From assembly GCA_011364925.1 (NCBI GenBank), contig RDOA01000007.1, positions 32,001 to 96,000 on the forward strand: a stretch of 64,000 bases of DNA. The letters run 5' to 3'. A program made the position numbers and the translations under genes. The DNA comes from Promethearchaeota archaeon (GTDB taxonomy: Archaea > Asgardarchaeota > Lokiarchaeia > Sigyniarchaeales > SOKP01). Positions 9,470 through 63,441 of this stretch are shown one piece after another. How positions within the stretch are numbered: the first letter of the stretch is position 1; every line of letters starts with the position of its first letter. The notes beneath the pieces were generated by a model, which was not told where the DNA came from, did no database searches, and worked only from the letters and a program-made list of their open reading frames with translations.

Positions 9470-10192
9470 ATGTTGCTTCAAAGTATTCTTATTCAGAGAA
9501 TTACTCTTGTCTTGATGTTCCAGGTATGGCCAATTTTTTTTTTATCGTACCTTGCTTACAAATTGTTAAAGAGAGCAAGAAATAGGGCCACATATTCTCT
9601 GAGTACCGTTTTTATTTTTATCGCATTTGCGTATGCGTTAATCTCATTGTCAGCATTTCTTTTTTTTCTACCTATGTCTTATTTTTTGTATATTGTTGGA
9701 TTGTATTTCTTCGTTTTGGGCAACTGTTTTTTTGTCATTTTTAGTTGGGTGTTGGTAAGACTTGAGGAAAAATCTCCCTATTGGATGTATTCGTTGTGGG
9801 TCACATTTTATGGAGTACTCTCTTCATATATTATATTATTAGGATATTTCTTTGACGGGATTAGATATGATTCTAGTACGGGATGGATTCCGACTTATAA
9901 CTGGTTTTTTTTAGCGTTAAGTTGGTTAATTTTCTCGGTTTTTATAGTAATTCCTCAGATTCCTCTTTCAATTAGGTTAATAAAAGTTTTTGAAGGTAAA
10001 GTTTTAAAAAAGAGAATATATTGGTATTTAATTTGCGTATTTTTTGAATTTAGTCTGGCATTTGCTGCATTTCTCTATAACACGTGGGTAGATAATCAAA
10101 TTTATAGGTTCGTTTATGTGTTTATTTTTCCCCCTTTAGGTTCGATCGGAGCATATCTAATTTACCGGAGTTTTATCAAAGAATTAGACTAG
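9470..10192 (+). CDS. Stand-alone 7TM membrane protein (HisKA_7TM-like sensor domain), paralog 1
   Basis: Seven hydrophobic segments, GIRYDSSTGWIPTY loop between TM4 and TM5; clear paralog of the next gene. Confidence 0.8.
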   Translation: MLLQSILIQRITLVLMFQVWPIFFLSYLAYKLLKRARNRATYSLSTVFIFIAFAYALISLSAFLFFLPMSYFLYIVGLYFFVLGNCFFVIFSWVLVRLEEKSPYWMYSLWVTFYGVLSSYIILLGYFFDGIRYDSSTGWIPTYNWFFLALSWLIFSVFIVIPQIPLSIRLIKVFEGKVLKKRIYWYLICVFFEFSLAFAAFLYNTWVDNQIYRFVYVFIFPPLGSIGAYLIYRSFIKELD

Positions 10193-10278
10193 GCGCCTAT
10201 AAATTATGTCCAAGCTTTTTTAACTCTTAAAAAGTTATCTTTAAATTATTGATAGTTTAATTATTATAAAGAGACAAA

Positions 10279-10998
10279 ATGCTTCTTCAAGATGCTCTTA
10301 CTCAAAGAATAATTATTGTTTTAATTGTTCAAGTTTGGCCAATTTTTTATGGGTCAATTTTAGCTTATAAAATATTAAAACGTAGAAAAAATCGGTCGAC
10401 CTATACACTTGCTACCCCTTTTATTTTAAATTCCATAACATATTTCTTAGCTACACTTTCAATCCTTTTTCTAAATACACCCTTCGCATACATCTTATAT
10501 ATAACTGGAATATATTTTTACGCATACTGCCATTGTTTTTTCATTATTTTAAGTTGGATTTTAGTAAGACTAGATGACCAAGCTCCCTTTTGGAAATTCA
10601 TCTTAATTGTTTCTTTTTATGGAATTATCTCAACTTACGTTTTTTGGATTGGATTTTATTTTAAAGGGATACGCTATGATGCGAGTACAACATGGATACC
10701 TACTTATAGTCTGTTTTTTCTCCTCTTCAGTTGGAGCTTTTTAGTAATTTTTATACTTATACCCCAAATCTATTTCTCATTTAAATTAAAAAAAATATTT
10801 GAAGGTGCAACATTAAGGCGTAGAATTAACATGTATTTAGTTAGTTTTTATTTAGAATTTCTTGTAGTCTTTTCAGTATTTCTATATAATACTTGGATAG
10901 ACAACCAGATTTACCGAATATTTTATCTTGTAATAATGCCAGCAACTTCAACCATTGCCGCCTTTTTAGTCTATAAAGGGTTTGGTAAAAATCTATAA
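10279..10998 (+). CDS. Stand-alone 7TM membrane protein, paralog 2
   Basis: Shares MLLQ, QVWPIF, GIRYD-x-WIPTY, IPQI and LYNTWxDNQIYR with 9470-10192. Confidence 0.8.
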   Translation: MLLQDALTQRIIIVLIVQVWPIFYGSILAYKILKRRKNRSTYTLATPFILNSITYFLATLSILFLNTPFAYILYITGIYFYAYCHCFFIILSWILVRLDDQAPFWKFILIVSFYGIISTYVFWIGFYFKGIRYDASTTWIPTYSLFFLLFSWSFLVIFILIPQIYFSFKLKKIFEGATLRRRINMYLVSFYLEFLVVFSVFLYNTWIDNQIYRIFYLVIMPATSTIAAFLVYKGFGKNL

Positions 10999-11000
10999 GA

Positions 11001-11717
11001 TTAGCTTAGATACTTTAAAGCTACTTCTGTAGAATTCTTAGCTTCCTCAACAGAAACCATTCCAATAGTGACACAACAAATATTATGGTGAGAAATATAA
11101 TCATAAGCTTGGTTCACATCTAATTTTCCGGCTGCTAGAGTCTTCATGCCAATAAAGTATTTATCTTTGTTCTCGTTTACAATGCCTTCTAACTTAGTTG
11201 GATTTCCCATCAAGAATCCTTTGGCATTAAAGGGAATTAAAAATGTCTTTACAGAGGGAAGGTTTTCGAATGCATATTCCAAAGTGGGAATAGGATTATG
11301 AACCGCTATCCCCGGAATTATACCTAGTGATTCAATATCATTAATTAATTTTCCTAATATCTCATCTTTTCGATCTGAAATCATTCCATGGGCAAAAATT
11401 ATCTTTGCGTCAAGAGCTGCTAAAACATCAATCATCGGATCAGGACCTGGATATGTAGACCCAGTTATAATAAAGTCGTCGTGAGTTTCTGCCATAGTTT
11501 TTGCAGCTTCACCAACTTTTCCTGCCGGAACCAACTCAATTCCACGTCCTCCAGCCTCATAACTAGCATTTAATATTTCTAAAACAGCATCCTTATCGTT
11601 TAGAAATTTCTTACGATAAAACCACGCATTTACACCAAATTGTCCAGCTCCTAAAAAGGGGGAAGTTCCAACAGATACAAGTGGGATTTTCTTTCCGTCT
11701 ATCTCGTAAAAAATAAT
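11001..11717 (-). CDS. Conserved archaeal aldo/keto-reductase-like TIM-barrel protein; probable ATT start at 11717
   Basis: The frame stays open 61 codons upstream of the track start (IFYEIDGKKIPLVSVGTSPFLGAGQFG...) up to a TAG; GGTGGT lies 3 nt before the ATT; MKTLAAG motif. Confidence 0.75.
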   Translation of the reverse strand: MIFYEIDGKKIPLVSVGTSPFLGAGQFGVNAWFYRKKFLNDKDAVLEILNASYEAGGRGIELVPAGKVGEAAKTMAETHDDFIITGSTYPGPDPMIDVLAALDAKIIFAHGMISDRKDEILGKLINDIESLGIIPGIAVHNPIPTLEYAFENLPSVKTFLIPFNAKGFLMGNPTKLEGIVNENKDKYFIGMKTLAAGKLDVNQAYDYISHHNICCVTIGMVSVEEAKNSTEVALKYLS

Positions 11718-11865
11718 CTAACCACCATAAAGTTTTATATTTTTTAGCAAAATTTTTCAATCATTATAAACCTTTATGTGAATTTGATTAATCACCTAAT
11801 TAATAAAAAGTATAAAAATTCTACAATCTAAATTATATTAATTCTCAAATAAAGGTAACAAAAAA

Positions 11866-13704
11866 ATGACAGATCCAAATGCGATAAAGAACAATCCATT
11901 TATAGAGTTAGGTGAGATCCCCGAAAAAAAGTATAAAGAGGGGTATATCATTGAAACAGCTTATATTACAGTACGGGATGGAGTGAAGATTGCTGCTACA
12001 ATTTGTCTTCCTAAAGGACTTCCTCCCAACGCTAAAATTCCTACTGTTTTAACTCAAACTAGATATTGGAGAGCTATGGAATTACGAATTCCGTTTAGGT
12101 GGATCCTTGATAGTATGGTACCGAACGCTCCAAATCCAGAAGTTGTAACTAGTCGGGGTTATGCCCTTATATACACTGATGTTCGTGGAACGGGAGCTTC
12201 AACGGGATCAAGAACTACTCCTTTTTCTGAAGAGGAAGTTAAAGACGGATACGATATTGTGGAGTGGATTATTGCTCAACCTTGGTCAGATGGAAATGTG
12301 GTCTCCAAAGGTATTTCTTATACAGGAATTACGGCAGAAATGTTTGCGAGGAACTTGCATCCAGCAATTAAAGCAGTAATTCCCGGTCATGGATTTTGGG
12401 ATCCATATACAGATGTTGCGTTTCCCGGTGGATGTTTTGACTATGGTTTCATTCAGATGTGGTCGTTTATTGGCAAGAATCTAGATTTAAACAACCCTAA
12501 AGTATTTAGGCAAGTCATGCCCGATGCGTGGCTGGTTGTGAAGGGCGTAAAATCCGTTAAATCAGATAAAGATTTAGAATTGTTGAATGAAGCAATAACA
12601 CAGCATAAATCTAATCAATATGTTTACGAACATACTCTTGATAAGAGTTATCGAGACGATCAAATTTTAGACGGTTCTTCTTTTGATGACTTCAGCGTTT
12701 TCGCCCATAAACAAGAAATCGCGCGTTCTAATCTACCAATTCTTGCTTGGTGTTCGTGGTTAGATTCTGGTTATGGAGATGCTATTATCCATAGATTCAT
12801 GAATACTCCTAATCCTCATATTGCTATTTTAGGCGATTGGAGTCATGGAGCAATTCTACCTGCGAATCAATTTTTTCCTAACAGAACTACAGTAACTCCT
12901 GCACCAAGAGATAAGGTGAATGCTTGGATTAATTTCTATGACAAGTGTATTTACGGTGAAGGTATCCAAGGAAAAGTGATATATTATTATACCTTAGTTG
13001 AGGAAAAATGGAAAAAATCTAATGTTTGGCCACCATTTGGGCATAATTACCAAAAATGGTATTTTTCTGATAATTTTACATTAACTCAAGAAAAACCTGA
13101 GAGCACTGTTGGAGAAGACTCGTATAAAGTTAATTTTCGCGCAACAACGGGGAGAAATAACCGATGGTGGGCTTTATTAGGGCTTCCGATAACCTACGAA
13201 AATAGAGCGAAAGTCGATGAAAAGTTAATATGCTACACCAGCCAACCATTAGAAAGCGATACTGAAATTACTGGGCAAATAATACTTTGTTTATATCTGA
13301 AATCAACGCACGATGATGGGTCAATTTTCGCCTATTTCGAGGATGTAGACGAGAACGGTAAGATCACTTATATAACAGATGGTGAATTTCGAGTAATTCA
13401 CAGAAAAATTTTAACTGAGAATCCCCCTTACAAAATATTGATTCCATATCATAGCTACAAAAAAGAGGATGCCGCTCCTCTCGTTCCGGGGGAAATAACA
13501 GAGATAAAGTTTGGATTACACTCAACTTCAGTTCTCATAAAAAAGGGTCATCGAATTAAGATTGGTATTGCTGGTGCAGATAAAGATACCTTCATCAGGT
13601 ATCCTGCTGAAGGAAGACCGACAATCACTATTTCGAGAAATAGTACCTATGCTTCATATCTTGAGATTCCAATTATCAAAAAACAACAGGAGGGTGAAAA
13701 ATAA
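11866..13704 (+). CDS. CocE/NonD family serine hydrolase
   Basis: VRDGVKIA, TRYWR, DVRGTGASTG, WIIAQPWSDG, nucleophile GISYTG. Confidence 0.93.
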   Translation: MTDPNAIKNNPFIELGEIPEKKYKEGYIIETAYITVRDGVKIAATICLPKGLPPNAKIPTVLTQTRYWRAMELRIPFRWILDSMVPNAPNPEVVTSRGYALIYTDVRGTGASTGSRTTPFSEEEVKDGYDIVEWIIAQPWSDGNVVSKGISYTGITAEMFARNLHPAIKAVIPGHGFWDPYTDVAFPGGCFDYGFIQMWSFIGKNLDLNNPKVFRQVMPDAWLVVKGVKSVKSDKDLELLNEAITQHKSNQYVYEHTLDKSYRDDQILDGSSFDDFSVFAHKQEIARSNLPILAWCSWLDSGYGDAIIHRFMNTPNPHIAILGDWSHGAILPANQFFPNRTTVTPAPRDKVNAWINFYDKCIYGEGIQGKVIYYYTLVEEKWKKSNVWPPFGHNYQKWYFSDNFTLTQEKPESTVGEDSYKVNFRATTGRNNRWWALLGLPITYENRAKVDEKLICYTSQPLESDTEITGQIILCLYLKSTHDDGSIFAYFEDVDENGKITYITDGEFRVIHRKILTENPPYKILIPYHSYKKEDAAPLVPGEITEIKFGLHSTSVLIKKGHRIKIGIAGADKDTFIRYPAEGRPTITISRNSTYASYLEIPIIKKQQEGEK

Positions 13705-14063
13705 TGGAAGAATTACTACCCAGTCTAAAAGGAATGCTTAAAGAAGCGATAGACATCGATAATGATGCATTAAATTTAACGATCACATTAACAGTTAAAA
13801 ACAAAATTAATGGAGTTATCGCTGAGCCCGAAGAAGTCGGTATAATGTTGAAAATGTATGGCGGTTTAACAGAAGAAATCCCGATGGAAATCAATATAGA
13901 CAATGAGAATCAAAAAATCATTTTAAAGTTCAAAAATGAAGAAGATTTTATGGAAATCGCTGAAATTTTTAAGAAAATATGGGATAACGCTATTGATCTG
14001 CTTTATCAAGCAATAAAAAGCGATTTTAGTCGCATTAAAAACATCCCTGATATCGACGATTAA
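13704..14063 (+). CDS. Hypothetical acidic protein
   Basis: TAATG overlap with the upstream gene and GGAGGGTG SD-like motif. Confidence 0.75.
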   Translation: MEELLPSLKGMLKEAIDIDNDALNLTITLTVKNKINGVIAEPEEVGIMLKMYGGLTEEIPMEINIDNENQKIILKFKNEEDFMEIAEIFKKIWDNAIDLLYQAIKSDFSRIKNIPDIDD

Positions 14064-14072
14064 ACTTTTTTT

Positions 14073-15065
14073 TTACTTTTTCTTTATTAATTGGCTTGAA
14101 GTCTGAGAATCTTTTTGTAATACTTCAAAAAATTTTGATAAATCGATATTGCCACCACTGATTATTAATCCAACTTTTTTATTCTTTATTAATGATGGTT
14201 CGATGTTGCCTGATAATAATCCTGCTAAAGGTACTGCCCCTGAAGGTTCTACAACGAGTTTCATGCGTTCCCAATAGAATTTCATAGCGTCAATAATTTG
14301 CTCTTCAGAAACGGTAACGATATCATCGACATATTCTTGAATTATTGGAAATGTCTTTTCTCCTACAGAAGTCCTTAATCCATCTGCAATTGTATTTGCG
14401 TTTACAACTGGTAAGCGCATTCCCGATTGAAATGAACGATAGGCATCATCCGCGTTTTTGGGTTCTATACCTATAACTTTTATTCTTGGAAGTAATCCTT
14501 TTGCTGCAATCGAGCACCCACTAATCAAACCACCACCTCCTATTGGAACAAGTAATAAGTCGATTGGTTTTATCGAAGTTAAAAATTCGTACGCAGTCGT
14601 ACCAGCTCCAAATATAACGTTGTAATCATCGAAAGGATGAACTAACCTGTAACCGTATTGTTCCACGAGTTCTTCAGCCATCTTAGCTCGATCACCAGGA
14701 TTATTTCCACAGAATATTACATCTGCTCCATAACCTTTAGTAGCTTGGATTTTGGAAGGAGTTGCATTATTCGGCATAATTATCGTAGCCTTTATTTTCA
14801 GCATTGCAGATACTAAAGCAACAGCTTGAGCGAAATTTCCCGAAGAGTGAGCTATAATCCCTTTTTTTCTCTCATCATTCGATATGTGGCTAATCACGTT
14901 CCACGCTCCTCTAAACTTAAAGGAACCTGTACGTTGAAAGTTCTCGCACTTAACAATTACATCTTTTGCGCCTGTAATTGAATCTAAAGTCCTACTAGTC
15001 ATAACTGGTGTTGCATTTGCCACATATGAGATTAACTTAGCTGCGTTTTTAATACTTTTAAAAAT
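14073..15065 (-). CDS. PLP-dependent threonine/serine dehydratase or serine racemase family protein (no ACT domain); probable ATT start at 15065
   Basis: KCENFQRTGSFKFRGA, SSGNFAQA, PIGGGGL, TIADGL, EPSGA, SGGN. The usual first helix (IFKSIKNAAKLI) lies upstream of the GTG at 15023. Confidence 0.9.
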   Translation of the reverse strand: MFKSIKNAAKLISYVANATPVMTSRTLDSITGAKDVIVKCENFQRTGSFKFRGAWNVISHISNDERKKGIIAHSSGNFAQAVALVSAMLKIKATIIMPNNATPSKIQATKGYGADVIFCGNNPGDRAKMAEELVEQYGYRLVHPFDDYNVIFGAGTTAYEFLTSIKPIDLLLVPIGGGGLISGCSIAAKGLLPRIKVIGIEPKNADDAYRSFQSGMRLPVVNANTIADGLRTSVGEKTFPIIQEYVDDIVTVSEEQIIDAMKFYWERMKLVVEPSGAVPLAGLLSGNIEPSLIKNKKVGLIISGGNIDLSKFFEVLQKDSQTSSQLIKKK

Positions 15066-15167
15066 TTAAATCAACTCGCTATTTAGTTTAAAGGACAATT
15101 TGATTGTATTAATTAGTATAATAATATTAGTAATCTTAAAAAAAATGTTAATATGAGTTGAGAGCTT

Positions 15168-16265
15168 TTATTGCTGTTGAGCTAGTTGTAGGGGAGGAAT
15201 AAATACTTCCCGAAGCCCAGTTCTTTCTAATTTCCTTGCTTTCTCAGGGCAATGATGAGCACAGAGGCCACAACCTATACATTTATTAAGAATTGTTGAG
15301 GAAAGAGCATCTACTAATTCAATTGCGTCTATTGGGCATTTGCTTATGCAAGTTCCACATCCTGTGCATTTATTTTTATTGACTCTTGCGATATAGTAAG
15401 TTAAAGTATGAAAAGGGAGTATTCCTCTCTTATATAGTTGGAAAAACTGACAGCAACAATCACAACAGTTACAAAATGCATTTTCTTCTTGGTCTGGATT
15501 TTTCAGATGAATAGCTTTGTGGATAAGCCCATCTTCTTCAGCTTCTTTCAAGATTTCTAAGGCTTTTGCTTTAGATATTAGGGTACTAAACTTGTGATCT
15601 ATAAGAAATTGAGCGTATCTTCCGAATTGAAAGCAACATAATTTCGGGCTTTCTAATTTACATTCTTGTTGTAAGTTATTTTTCCAATTTCTACAATAAC
15701 AATAATTAACAGCTATAATTTCATTTCTTTCTATAATACTTTTAGCGTTTTCATAAGGTAATACTACATCTCGATATGCTTCGACTTCTTTATTAACAGG
15801 AACAACTCTATCTATTGGTTTACGAGCCTTAAACTGCTCTACAATTACATTATAATTACTTTGAGTCAAGTCCCTTAACTCATCTAATAATTTATCTATC
15901 TGTTTAGCTACTTCCTTCTGCTTATTGCCTTGTTCACCTCTCATAAAAGGATATTCAATAAGCCCTGGAAGGATTGAGATTAATGAGTATACCATACTTC
16001 CCGTACTCCTACTTGGAATTCCCATTATTATTCCATTATCCATTAATTCATTGAGCATCTTTTTTAGTTCTAGATCGTTTAACTCAGTTTTAGATTTAAT
16101 CTGTTCCAAATTTAACGACCGTTTCCTAAAGAGTGACAGAAATTTTGCTTGATCTTCATTTACTAAAGTCTGAATTAGCTTAATTAATGTATCACTTATG
16201 GGGATAGGTGCACCTCCAGCATTAACAAAATTTCTCGCAACTTTTTGCCATAATTTCTCTGAAAT
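15168..16265 (-). CDS. 4Fe-4S dicluster-binding protein with CxCR / CNCCxCCC motifs; probable ATT start at 16265
   Basis: CYCR, CNCCDCCC and two CxxCxxCxxxCP motifs; the 52-codon upstream extension aligns with the N-terminus of the paralog at 25574-26728. Confidence 0.88.
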   Translation of the reverse strand: MSEKLWQKVARNFVNAGGAPIPISDTLIKLIQTLVNEDQAKFLSLFRKRSLNLEQIKSKTELNDLELKKMLNELMDNGIIMGIPSRSTGSMVYSLISILPGLIEYPFMRGEQGNKQKEVAKQIDKLLDELRDLTQSNYNVIVEQFKARKPIDRVVPVNKEVEAYRDVVLPYENAKSIIERNEIIAVNYCYCRNWKNNLQQECKLESPKLCCFQFGRYAQFLIDHKFSTLISKAKALEILKEAEEDGLIHKAIHLKNPDQEENAFCNCCDCCCQFFQLYKRGILPFHTLTYYIARVNKNKCTGCGTCISKCPIDAIELVDALSSTILNKCIGCGLCAHHCPEKARKLERTGLREVFIPPLQLAQQQ

Positions 16266-16477
16266 TTTTAATCATCTTTTAATTATAATTCAAATTACGC
16301 ATATTATCTATTCTCAAAATCCTAAATTATTTCAAGTGTCTGCTCCATCTTTCCTTTATACATTAGTTTCTCCACTTGTACTAGTAATTACTTGTACTAA
16401 TGAGTCTAATAATTTTTTTAATCTTAAAAAAAATGCCAATACAAATTATAAATATGATAATAACAAATACCATAATT

Positions 16478-23982: not shown

Positions 23983-25398
23983 TCATTGTAGATATGGATG
24001 TTGTTTTAATTCTTCTCGCATTTTTTTAAGTTTTTCACCATGTAATGGAAATCGTGATAAAATTATAATCGCTATTCCACATCCAATTGCAGGAAAAACA
24101 AACATTATCGTTTTGATTGCAAACTCTACTTCACTGAGAGGTATAAGAGGGTTATAATCATTCGCCCAAGATGTTCCTTGAAACACAATTCCAATAGTTA
24201 AGATGGCAAATATGGTAGAAAACCTATGAATGAATGCGTTGACGCCGTAATAACTCGCAGATCGTTTTACACCGAACTTAAGAGCATCCTCATCAATTAC
24301 ATCACCATGTATTATATCAACATAGAAAAGAGCACCTGATAATGCGATCCCTTGAATAGCGGTCACTATAATTCCAAAGACTACATTTCCAAGTGGTATA
24401 AGCACAAAGAAGAACAGTAAGACGATCCATATTCCTAAAGTAAGCATGAAAGCATTTCGCATACCTAGTTTCCTACCAAGTCTCATGTGGAGTGGCAACA
24501 ATAATGCTGCTATAATTAATGCTGAAGCTAACGATATCGTAATAATAAATCCTTGGTCTATAAGTAATATGTAGACCCCAAATAATGGTAATATTAGTAT
24601 TAGAGTATTAAAGACATACCATACAAGCATATTAGTGAATGTAAACTTAAGGAACGTCGTATTCTTAGCTGTAATTTTAAGCGATTGATAAAATGAAGGT
24701 CTCTTTTCGAAAATTTCTTGATCTTCGTCTTTTTCCTTAATGCCTTTGAGCAGAAAAGGAATTGCGGTTAAAATCGTTATCACTGCGACCATTGTTCCAC
24801 CAATTATATAGTTAATTTTAATAATATTAAGTCCAGCAGGAGTAGTTGTCTCATCTGGTACTAACGGAGAAAATAAAAGAGAAGGAAGACTTGCAATAAT
24901 GATGCCTAAGACAGTTAAAGCTTTTACAAAAACATTTGTTTGTGATCGGTGACTTTCAGTTGGGAACATTTCCGGAAATAATGCATTTACATTTACATCC
25001 CATAAGGTGTAAAAAAACTCAAATAACATGATAATGAAAAGGAAATATATATATTGAAGAATTTTTTCACTCGCCGCAAAGGGAACGGTAAATAAGAAAA
25101 TCATCATTAAAGATAATGGAATAATAGTTATAATTAGATAAAATTTCCGCTTCCCTAATTTACCCTTATGTCTTGTTCTTTCAGAAAGACCGCCCAAGAT
25201 TGGATCATTGATGCTATTCCATAAAGACCAAACTATAAATCCAATCATCACTGGAACTGTACCCAAATTTACAACAGCAAAGTAATAAGTGAACACAAAG
25301 AGATTAAAAAATTGATATACCATCTGATCGGGAATTGCAGAGAGAGCAAATAAGAATTTCTTTTTAAACGGTAATCGTTCGTCGCTCATACTTTTCAT
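23983..25398 (-). CDS. MFS transporter, glycoside-pentoside-hexuronide (MelB-like) family
   Basis: WNSINDPILGGLSE, ALFPEMF, DVIDED; start may be 25389. Confidence 0.9.
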   Translation of the reverse strand: MKSMSDERLPFKKKFLFALSAIPDQMVYQFFNLFVFTYYFAVVNLGTVPVMIGFIVWSLWNSINDPILGGLSERTRHKGKLGKRKFYLIITIIPLSLMMIFLFTVPFAASEKILQYIYFLFIIMLFEFFYTLWDVNVNALFPEMFPTESHRSQTNVFVKALTVLGIIIASLPSLLFSPLVPDETTTPAGLNIIKINYIIGGTMVAVITILTAIPFLLKGIKEKDEDQEIFEKRPSFYQSLKITAKNTTFLKFTFTNMLVWYVFNTLILILPLFGVYILLIDQGFIITISLASALIIAALLLPLHMRLGRKLGMRNAFMLTLGIWIVLLFFFVLIPLGNVVFGIIVTAIQGIALSGALFYVDIIHGDVIDEDALKFGVKRSASYYGVNAFIHRFSTIFAILTIGIVFQGTSWANDYNPLIPLSEVEFAIKTIMFVFPAIGCGIAIIILSRFPLHGEKLKKMREELKQHPYLQ

Positions 25399-61615: not shown

Positions 61616-62872
61616 TTATTTTTCCTCCTTTGAGAAATCAGGATGCACACAACTTCTCCATTGATCGACAGTCTCTTTAGGACCTAATCCTATCAAAAGA
61701 TCTCCTACTTCAAAAAGGAAATCAGACTTGAAACTATAAATCCATTTATCTTCGCGTTTGAGAGCTATAATGTGAAAGCCTCGCTTATATTTTTGATTTT
61801 GTAATTGCTTATAGGTTTTATCTTTGAAATAAGAATCACTCGAAATAGTTTCTCGTACAACAATTTCGGGTGTTTCTTCAATAGCTTTCTGTAGTATGAT
61901 ATGTGGTTCAAATCCTTCTATAATATTTTCAGCTATGTGAGCTGCGGCGTCAGCAATCCCTTCACAAGAAAACACGATTCTCATAATTCCAGTTAATGAT
62001 CGTGGCGAATCTACTAAATGAGCAAATTCTAATAGATCCTTTTCGAAATTAATGTTGAGTCCATCTAAAATATCTTCCATTTCGAGGACATCTTCGGCGA
62101 CTTCGTAGCTATTAAAGAATAGTGCTGCTAACGCCAATTCTACCATTGTTTCTGAGATATCAGTAATTAATACGTAATCTTTTTTAAGCACTTGGATATA
62201 ATCAAGGATTTCGGGATTTGCTAGATCAAAATCCGCTTCTTCTTCCACATTATCAATATTGAAAGAAAATTTTTCGTTATCGTAAGCTAACGCTTTCAAT
62301 TGTTTGATTGATTCAATCTCGCCTTTGATTATTAAAATATCGTGAACTTGGATTACATTATCTTTTTCGAATAACCACTCGTCCTGTCTTTTAATTGCTA
62401 TTAGATCCACTCCATATTTTGATCTAAAATGAACATCCCTACGATTCATCCCTATAAAATCACAATTCTCATTGACAGTTATTTTTACAATGGGTTCGGG
62501 AACTTCGTCCCAAAATAATTGCGTGAATTCAGATATGTCACTATTGATATATACAACTCGAGCGATATCTGCAAGAGCATCCGAAATTTTGTCAATAGAA
62601 TAACCCATTACCACTATGGGTTCTAAAGCTTTCGCTTCTTTAAAGCCACCAGCTTGAGTTTGAATTATCTGCAAATTCAAAAGAAATACTAATTCATGGA
62701 TTCTTTTTTCAATTTTAGAAGTTTCGTCTGCAATTTCTCTAATACTAAACTTTATTGCGCTATAAGCGAGATCTATCATTAAATCTATTTTCTTTTTCAT
62801 TTCTTTTAAGATATCTTTCAATGAGATTGGTTGATACTTAAACTTCTTCCTTTTTTCTTGTTTTTTAATTAT
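61616..62872 (-). CDS. Tandem (PhoU + TrkA-C/RCK_C) x2 regulatory protein; start probably upstream of the TTG at 62821 (ATA 62872 or ATT 62869)
   Basis: LMIDLAYSA / MVELALAA PhoU helices; IAIKR / IALKR TrkA-C strands; upstream in-frame KYQPIS. Confidence 0.85.
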   Translation of the reverse strand: MIKKQEKRKKFKYQPISLKDILKEMKKKIDLMIDLAYSAIKFSIREIADETSKIEKRIHELVFLLNLQIIQTQAGGFKEAKALEPIVVMGYSIDKISDALADIARVVYINSDISEFTQLFWDEVPEPIVKITVNENCDFIGMNRRDVHFRSKYGVDLIAIKRQDEWLFEKDNVIQVHDILIIKGEIESIKQLKALAYDNEKFSFNIDNVEEEADFDLANPEILDYIQVLKKDYVLITDISETMVELALAALFFNSYEVAEDVLEMEDILDGLNINFEKDLLEFAHLVDSPRSLTGIMRIVFSCEGIADAAAHIAENIIEGFEPHIILQKAIEETPEIVVRETISSDSYFKDKTYKQLQNQKYKRGFHIIALKREDKWIYSFKSDFLFEVGDLLIGLGPKETVDQWRSCVHPDFSKEEK

Positions 62873-62886
62873 TTTCTCACTCTCGT

Positions 62887-63441
62887 TTATAATATAAATA
62901 TGTGGATGAATATTATTATTAATAAAGGTGTTAAAAAGTCTGATAAAGAGGTTATAATAGGAATTAAATAATTATTGGGATCTTTTCCATTTCTAAATAA
63001 TAATATGGAACCGATAAATAAAAATACAAACATAACTCCAAACAGAATTAAAACTGTAACATTTAAAATTGATATAATCAAAAGGGGATTAACTATTTCT
63101 ATTCCAGTAACAATTCCTATTATATATCCTATGCTGATTAATGCTGCAAGACTTAATAAAATTGTTATCAATAGTCCATAAAAATCTTGTTTCAATCGAT
63201 TGGATGTCTTAATTTTTGGAGATAAAGTCCCTAAGTACAAGTGGGAAGTAAGTCGAGATACTAGCACCGTTGAGATGTTACCCGTTAGTGAATTTAAAGA
63301 GGGTAATACCAATAAAATTATCGGAAAACTTGCTAATATCTGCTCATTACTAGATAACAAGGTACCTGAAAAGAGTCCCATTACTGAACTAATTAAAACG
63401 ACGATAATTGACTCTTTAAAGATTTTTTTAAAGTAATCCAT
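62887..63441 (-). CDS. MgtE-type divalent cation transporter membrane domain
   Basis: PSLNSLTGN, GKDPNN, PIITSLSD; likely start MDYFKK. Confidence 0.88.
   Translation of the reverse strand: MDYFKKIFKESIIVVLISSVMGLFSGTLLSSNEQILASFPIILLVLPSLNSLTGNISTVLVSRLTSHLYLGTLSPKIKTSNRLKQDFYGLLITILLSLAALISIGYIIGIVTGIEIVNPLLIISILNVTVLILFGVMFVFLFIGSILLFRNGKDPNNYLIPIITSLSDFLTPLLIIIFIHIFIL

Follow-up and report, generated by a model that had tools for sequence, protein, structure and literature searches.

Apparent initiation at ATT, ATA and ATC codons behind Shine-Dalgarno motifs in a Lokiarchaeia genome and its genus

Introduction

Archaeal initiation is known to involve Shine-Dalgarno (SD)-assisted positioning of the pre-initiation complex, with GUG and UUG tolerated, and reviews give AUG, GUG and UUG as the archaeal start codons (PMC4705826, PMC7531240). 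The codons AUU, AUA and AUC (AUH in RNA, ATH in DNA) are not given as regular archaeal start codons in the reviews PMC7531240, PMC6412873 and PMC4705826, and Sulfolobus aIF1 discriminates against AUU in vitro (PMC4705826, PMC6237735). Ribosome profiling of Haloferax did detect sites of this near-cognate kind, but they were set aside (PMC7261190), and our full-text literature search found no paper on AUH starts in Asgard archaea. Here we describe a stretch of 64,000 nucleotides (the window) from an uncultured Loki-type Asgard archaeon of the Lokiarchaeia/Promethearchaeia, positions 32001-96000 of contig RDOA01000007.1. In this window three nearby minus-strand genes, coding for a TIM-barrel protein (gene 1), an ammonia-lyase (gene 2) and an Fe-S protein (gene 3), have no ATG, GTG or TTG (the canonical codons) ahead of their N-termini and would start at ATT. 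Our reading, which we hold with a probability of about 0.85, is that these three intact genes begin at AUU 5-7 nt after an SD and that starting at ATH is a habit of the organism and of its genus.

The nearest described cases are infC (IF3) and pcnB of E. coli, which start at AUU after an SD with the normal initiator tRNA, and the same scheme is proposed here (Butler 1987 cited in PMC4705826; PMC5499595). The AUU start of infC autoregulates IF3, and eIF1 is likewise autoregulated via poor context (PMC4705826). The likeness to infC extends to the fidelity-factor gene itself bearing the weak codon, as the aIF1 gene does in 14 of 14 orthologs of the genus. However, only a handful of genes is concerned in E. 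coli, against roughly 10% of SD-led starts here, ribosomal proteins included. Moreover, aIF1 (SUI1 fold) is unrelated to IF3, and an autoregulation of aIF1 like that of IF3 would be hypothetical. Eukaryotic eIF1 is a homolog of aIF1, and with a weak initiation site in both, output would rise when stringency falls (PMC4705826); eIF1 differs in using AUG in a poor Kozak context with scanning, and not a non-AUG codon after an SD. The AUN starts of animal mitochondria (AUA/AUU/AUC) and the non-AUG starts of chloroplasts are likewise regular third-position mismatches in many genes (PMC9845219). Mitochondria differ in having no SD, a modified tRNA-Met and AUA reassigned to Met, whereas here AUH stays Ile in elongation.

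Asgard proteomes are the raw material for inferences on the origin of eukaryotes, and they have been called almost wholly by gene finders that accept ATG, GTG and TTG only. With ATH starts in this genome and genus, ordinary gene finders shorten the proteins concerned. Such calls would strip the P-loops of small GTPases, the nucleotide-binding part of a ThiF/E1-like enzyme, the N-termini of ribosomal proteins and most of aIF1. A prokaryote with eukaryote-type factors (aIF1, aIF1A, aIF2) that accepts AUU, AUA and AUC, ribosomal proteins not excepted, would bear on how stringency evolved from archaea to eukaryotes, and it touches a second question, whether the self-limiting loop of eIF1 had an archaeal precursor.

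Results

Three minus-strand genes without a canonical start codon

The window belongs to a 3.92 Mb, 112-contig archaeal metagenome-assembled genome (MAG; G000) of 33% GC, in which its contig is C91. The three genes and the motifs in front of them are as follows.

11001..11717, minus strand: gene 1, aldo-keto reductase-like TIM-barrel protein, 238 aa; stop codon 11001-11003
11721..11726, minus strand: SD-like GGTGGT of gene 1, directly before TAG 11720-11718; duplex -9.5 kcal/mol
14073..15065, minus strand: gene 2, pyridoxal phosphate-dependent threonine/serine/3-hydroxyaspartate ammonia-lyase family, 330 aa; PALP at residues 15-304
15070..15077, minus strand: SD-like GAGTTGAT of gene 2; duplex -8.1 kcal/mol
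15168..16265, minus strand: gene 3, Fe-S protein with a C-terminal 2x[4Fe-4S] domain (Fer4), 365 aa; large paralog family
16271..16278, minus strand: weak SD-like AAGATGAT of gene 3, containing the in-frame TGA 16274-16272 and the out-of-frame ATG 16275

Duplex energies were computed with the 16S rRNA 3' end of the same genome (GGAUCACCUCCU, start of contig C86); upstream of interior ATT codons they have a median of -3.6 and a 5th percentile of -8.9 kcal/mol. The starting point of this work was a sequence-only reading of the window, which placed the N-termini of the three genes upstream of any ATG, GTG or TTG and bounded by a stop, and this was confirmed, the stop lying 0-2 codons upstream. 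It had also placed an SD before each of the three ATTs. The motifs of genes 1 and 2 are genuine SDs, whereas that of gene 3 (-4.5 kcal/mol) is at chance level. The TTG-started genes that it had cited as controls (30137 and 60988 on the minus strand; 28592, 40735, 52273, 58505 and 59714 on the plus strand) were as described.

Gene 1 opens with the in-frame TAG 11720-11718 followed by ATT 11717 and ATT 11714. Its first 61 codons are free of ATG, GTG and TTG, and a start at the first canonical codon, TTG 11534, would cost 61 residues. Nineteen orthologs in the genus align from residue 1-3 on and keep this extension. Nucleotide diversity in its first 30 codons is 0.22 at the first, 0.16 at the second and 0.51 at the third codon position, and the DNA upstream has about 0.56-0.57. 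In an alignment of 41 sequences, the residues P12, G17, T18, S19, F21, G23, Q26, F27, G28, A31, F38, Y53, G56, R58, G59 and I60 of the extension are invariant, and the invariant block GTSPFxGAGQFG sits within the start-less stretch. The AlphaFold model of gene 1 is a TIM barrel (pLDDT 92, pTM 0.90), in which residues 1-62 form an N-terminal beta-hairpin, beta1, two helices (including alpha1) and beta2. Its nearest solved folds are aldo-keto reductases (TM 0.65-0.70, about 13% identity), a resemblance of fold and not membership of the family; gene 1 has no Pfam and no NCBIfam match.

In the orthologs, GGTGA or GGTG stands in the place of GGTGGT, and in most species ATT, ATA or ATC follows it by 4-7 nt. 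Two of them (L015, L017) read GGTGA-nnnTAG-ATT, with ATT directly after the in-frame TAG. At the codon aligned with 11714 there is ATG in L013 and TTG in L016 and L018; L019 has ATG two codons upstream. Because the Met or TTG codon of these orthologs aligns with the second ATT, ATT 11714 (aligned spacing 7) seems a likelier start than ATT 11717 (spacing 4). The ATT start that had been proposed for gene 1 is thus retained, but more likely at 11714 than at 11717. The Met of public full-length calls of the family (MFYEIEG...) also aligns with the second ATT.

The starts of public protein calls in this family are inconsistent and many calls are truncated. Their lengths are 202 aa (27 of the best 120), 224-233 aa and 238-246 aa, and their N-termini read MNDIEAILEIL, MSVGTSPF, MGASQFG or MFYEIEG. 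Protein P0001, from a very close relative, is 96% identical to gene 1. There a sense codon stands in place of the TAG that precedes the ATT, which brings an upstream ATG into frame, and the publicly called protein has 11 additional residues (MIVKLSGGSIIFYEIDG). Gene callers thus set starts inconsistently around one SD.

Gene 2 opens with the in-frame triplets TTG (15074), ATT and TAA (15068-15066), followed by ATT 15065. The TTG lies within GAGTTGAT, in frame with gene 2, and is closed at once by the TAA. The first canonical start, GTG 15023, is the 15th codon and would cost 14 conserved residues. NCBIfam model NF005454 (threo-3-hydroxy-L-aspartate ammonia-lyase) aligns gene 2 from residue 2 at profile position 9, with a score below the model cut-off, and the 14 extra residues are therefore family-typical. 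Diversity in the extension is 0.28/0.17/0.43 at codon positions 1/2/3, against about 0.56 upstream, and GTG 15023 is not conserved as a start (GTA, GTT or GCA in orthologs). The orthologs have ATT or ATA after GGTGA, as in L027 (GGTGA-aaaacg-ATT, the TGA of the SD being in frame) and in L034 and L035 (GGTGA-aatatt-ATT, 6 nt); L025, L036 and L038 are likewise without a canonical start, and distant species have ATG one codon upstream. The sequence-only reading had proposed looking for ATG or TTG at the ATT position of orthologs. Among orthologs and paralogs, such codons (ATG, TTG or GTG) are indeed found there in some species, with ATT, ATA or ATC in most. Purifying selection maintains the extension in orthologs from about 20 related species. 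For genes 1 and 2, the ortholog extensions and start-site codons together rule out sequencing error, frameshift and downstream starts.

Genes 1 and 2 (window 11001-15065, loci L005-L047) adjoin on the same contigs in most genomes of the genus, for example on G008:C20, G009:C387, G002:C18 and G016:C71. The two probably belong together functionally, and both have ATH starts.

In gene 3, the in-frame TGA 16274-16272 is followed by TTA AAA ATT (16265), and the first canonical start is TTG 16109, 52 codons downstream. Where gene 3 has ATT TCA GAG AAA TTA TGG, its paralogs have ATG/GTG/TTG TCT GAA AAA TTA TGG. The alignment with a paralog's N-terminus that had been put forward for this gene therefore holds to the codon, the ATG, GTG or TTG of the paralogs falling exactly on ATT 16265.

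ATH codons share the SD register of TTG and GTG starts genome-wide

The genome was scanned in 3,528 stop-to-stop open reading frames (ORFs) of at least 120 codons each, and the codons tested were those that precede the first ATG, GTG or TTG by 8 codons or more. A strong SD was defined as an exact run of at least 5 nt from AGGAGGTGATC upstream, with the aligned spacing recorded; expected counts were taken from same-phase distant spacings, with Poisson P values. At aligned spacings of 6-7, a strong SD preceded ATT 22 times against 6.7 expected (P=2e-6), ATA 25 times against 6.7 (P=4e-8) and ATC 6 times against 2.3 (P=0.03), whereas the control codons AAT, TTA, TAT, TTT and AAA were flat, with no spacing peak. 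The ATT and ATA peaks lie in the same register as those of TTG and GTG codons that come first in their ORFs (30 and 20 for TTG, 11 and 7 for GTG), and the ATG distribution is broader (spacings 4-9). The genome-wide count of SD-preceded ATT that had been suggested from the window thus gave a spacing peak specific to ATT and ATA.

Counting only within the 8 codons that follow the upstream stop gave excesses of SD-led starts of 237 for ATG, 59 for TTG, 37 for GTG, 20 for ATT, 12 for ATA, 7 for ATC, 9 for ACG and 7.5 for CTG. The ATH share is roughly 10% of SD-led starts, about as frequent as GTG. Genes with an ATH start and a strong SD number about 40-50. This is a lower bound, because all three genes of the window fell short of the strong-SD filter (0/3 passed; their SDs are imperfect, with exact runs of 4 nt), and the ATH share of all genes is perhaps 2-4%. 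A mixture fitted to hexamer scores gave about 94 ORFs in which coding sequence extends upstream of the first canonical codon by 15 codons or more, a rough estimate since these scores separate coding onset only moderately. About 75 candidates genome-wide have no canonical start before a conserved N-terminus. Three other measures were set aside: the probability of an SD given the codon, without spacing, was enriched about 2-fold with rare GC-rich codons making the top of the list noisy; an unfiltered count of SD excess over all 5' positions was swamped by in-frame coding background of the GGT-GAT kind; and single-codon log-odds were too weak for coding onset.

In spot-checked candidates, Pfam domains begin from profile position 1-2 within the start-less prefix:

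C92:2261, ATT start: Rab-like GTPase (Ras), Pfam domain beginning in the start-less prefix
C22:2983, ATT start: ThiF, first canonical codon 81 codons in
C26:38151, ATA start: Gtr1/RagA, P-loop removed by a canonical start
C53:9778, ATT start: IF-2B, Pfam domain beginning in the start-less prefix
C112:21873, ATA start: second Ras, Pfam domain beginning in the start-less prefix
C10:4224, ATT start: TetR, Pfam domain beginning in the start-less prefix
C79:10321, ATA start: DsrE, Pfam domain beginning in the start-less prefix

Essential genes, aIF1 and phylogenetic extent

Essential genes are among those concerned. Ribosomal protein uS4 begins here with ATC GGA GAT CCA (IGDPRR) after AAGGTGAT. In 66 related species its start codon (xGDPRR) is ATG in 49, ATC in 14 and ATA in 3, always after AAGGTGA; in 15 genomes from other families of the same order it is ATG in all 15. 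The uL15 gene has ATA here and ATT in two congeners, and elsewhere ATG at the same or the next codon. PheT starts with ATA ATA after GAGGTGA.

The gene of aIF1, the sole SUI1 gene of the genome (C86), has no canonical codon before residue ~68. Its opening reads TGA AAA AAG AGT ATT AAA GAC... and yields xKDDDICAICSFPKDLCICD, a zinc knuckle, which is typical of archaeal aIF1 (PMC6237735). The start is ATT in 14 of 14 orthologs of the genus, with a conserved AGGTTGTGA-9 nt leader, and the leader sequence AGGTTGTGAaaaaagagt is nearly invariant over these orthologs. Two aIF1 paralogs read GAGGTGA-8 nt-ATT. In other families of the order the aIF1 start is ATA (g5), TTG (g2), GTG (g11) or ATG. At the locus itself (G000:C86:10150-10537; L195) the leader ataaAGGTTGTGAaaaaagagtATT hardly varies among 14 species, whereas the diversity of other intergenic DNA is about 56%. 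Such conservation suggests that the sequence around this ATT is a regulatory leader under constraint.

Outside the genus, in the first 1.2 Mb of a complete genome from another family (G032), about 3.6 ATH codons were expected at spacing 6-7 and 9 were observed. A sample of the same size from the genome of the window had 19 where 3.6 were expected. The habit seems strongest in the genus and weaker elsewhere in the order. Two convincing single ATH cases stand at C1:198102 and 926345 of that complete genome (L229, L266). One is an ATA after GAGGTGAT, in a protein that is FtsX-like by N-terminal resemblance, and the other an ATT after AAGGTGA.

The relaxed start-codon selection that the sequence-only reading had proposed for this lineage is supported by the ortholog codons and by the genome-wide SD register, and it widens to ATA (as common as ATT), to ATC, to essential genes and to the genus.

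Initiator tRNA and proposed mechanism

A pattern search found one initiator-type tRNA gene (C44, minus strand, about 24860-25000, 141 nt), with the anticodon CAT, A1:U72, a GGG/CCC anticodon stem and an intron in the T-arm. It found no second initiator tRNA with another anticodon, tRNA detection being partial in this genome, where many tRNA genes bear introns. ARAGORN detected 11-22 tRNAs in the genome and no tRNA-Met, a low yield that we attribute to the intron-rich tRNA genes, most of which probably carry unusual introns.

Because the single initiator tRNA found has a normal CAU anticodon, near-cognate, SD-anchored initiation under relaxed stringency is the likeliest mechanism. The SD duplex with the 16S 3' end would place the AUH codon in the P site, where the ordinary initiator Met-tRNA (CAU) would pair with AUU despite the third-position mismatch. 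The first residue would be Met, and start-codon stringency (the aIF1 checkpoint) would be relaxed or tuned in the lineage. The 6-7 nt register is narrower than that of ATG, as would be expected if weak codons have to be placed optimally.

The ATT start of aIF1 may provide a feedback like that of bacterial infC, and it is the only pointer to a possible regulatory role of ATH starts. That the genus as a whole has shifted its stringency set-point, with AUH as a regular class of weak starts tuning the output of hundreds of genes, is a tentative extension, which we consider somewhat less probable than its opposite.

Discussion

Initiation at ATH codons, with Met first and stringency relaxed or tuned, is what we infer from sequence features: canonical starts are absent, the extensions are conserved and coding, the SD register is specific, and ATH, ATG and TTG codons interchange among species. 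Two explanations would dispense with ATT starts altogether. An assembly or sequencing error, or a programmed frameshift, might hide a true start at the out-of-frame ATG 11728 of gene 1 or 16275 of gene 3. Both ATGs adjoin homopolymers, so that one T more in T6 (11713-11708) or one A less in A5 (16270-16266) would join the frames, a possibility that the sequence-only reading had itself raised; slippage of the ribosome in either run would have the same effect. However, this ATG is missing from the gene 1 orthologs of about 19 independent MAGs, which are without a canonical start all the same, and the idea is not supported for this gene. A canonical start is likewise absent in the gene 2 orthologs, in uS4 (17 species) and in aIF1 (14 species), the Met codon of the gene 3 paralogs aligns exactly with the ATT with no indel needed, and random indels cannot yield a genome-wide peak in SD register. 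We consider an indel or frameshift next to negligible, and it was rejected as a general explanation, the upstream out-of-frame ATG not being conserved in orthologs. Translation might instead begin at the first downstream canonical codon (TTG 11534, GTG 15023, TTG 16109), with an untranslated leader upstream. This is how gene finders call such genes; the public gene 1-family lengths do vary, and gene 2 would lose 14 residues only. Against it, the upstream stretch evolves as coding sequence and carries the most conserved motifs of the family, the gene 1 extension is predicted to supply the hairpin, beta1 and alpha1 of the barrel, the profiles match from their first positions, and orthologs do not keep the downstream codons as starts, as seen for the GTG of gene 2; we regard a downstream start as very improbable. 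Pseudogenes were dismissed for genes 1 and 2, whose frames are intact and under constraint, and so was a variant code or stop read-through: the profiles and orthologs begin at the ATH codon, and the DNA upstream has diverged (about 0.56) like non-coding DNA.

A different kind of rival accepts the ATH starts and ascribes them to a dedicated decoding device, such as modification of C34 in the initiator tRNA or a further initiator able to read AUH. The use of AUA and AUU, then AUC, is a third-position (AUN) pattern as in animal mitochondria, where 5-formylcytidine (f5C) at C34 lets tRNA-Met read AUA, and AUH is used even in ribosomal proteins, which are presumably abundant. However, the one initiator-type tRNA gene found, in a search limited by the many tRNA genes with introns, has a CAT anticodon, and the small CTG and ACG excesses fit a general near-cognate leakiness, so that such a device appears unlikely. 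Of much the same low likelihood is a fate confined to gene 3, namely that this paralog recently lost its ATG to ATT and is silent or barely expressed and decaying. Its SD duplex of -4.5 kcal/mol lies within the background and is at chance level, a search of 30 genomes of the genus gave no ortholog exceeding 55% identity, and the family has 6 paralogs in this genome. Yet the frame of 365 codons is intact with all Cys motifs and Fer4 domains, ATT starts are tolerated in this genome, and the ATT stands 6 nt from the TGA(T) core, which is the optimum spacing in this genome.

The chance-level SD of gene 3 and its lack of an ortholog weigh against AUU initiation in all three genes, and other points weigh against the wider habit or its explanation. 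Several gene 2 orthologs have an in-frame TTG inside GAG(G)TTGAT, a possible start, so that an ATT or ATA start is not forced in them; in the genome of the window this TTG is closed by TAA. The genome total is uncertain, with estimates between about 1.3%, when strong SDs alone are counted, and a few percent. Finally, a relaxed aIF1 is without sequence support, because loop 1 shows no clear change specific to the genus, which has DRRKWGR where other members of the order have DKRKWGR. The fidelity substitutions that the sequence-only reading had suggested looking for in aIF1 are thus not evident in this loop.

Other features of the window

A search of the window against Rfam gave 0 matches. A 451-codon ORF on the minus strand (62971..61616) may contain a fourth ATH start of the window. 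It reads GAGAGTGA-gaaa-ATA (62872) ATT (62869), with a duplex of -8.0 kcal/mol, and the first canonical codon of the ORF, TTG 62821, comes 17 codons further downstream. Directly beyond the end of gene 1, on the plus strand (9470-10998), there are two tandem paralogous multi-pass membrane proteins of 240 and 239 aa, both of which begin with MLLQ..LxQRI.

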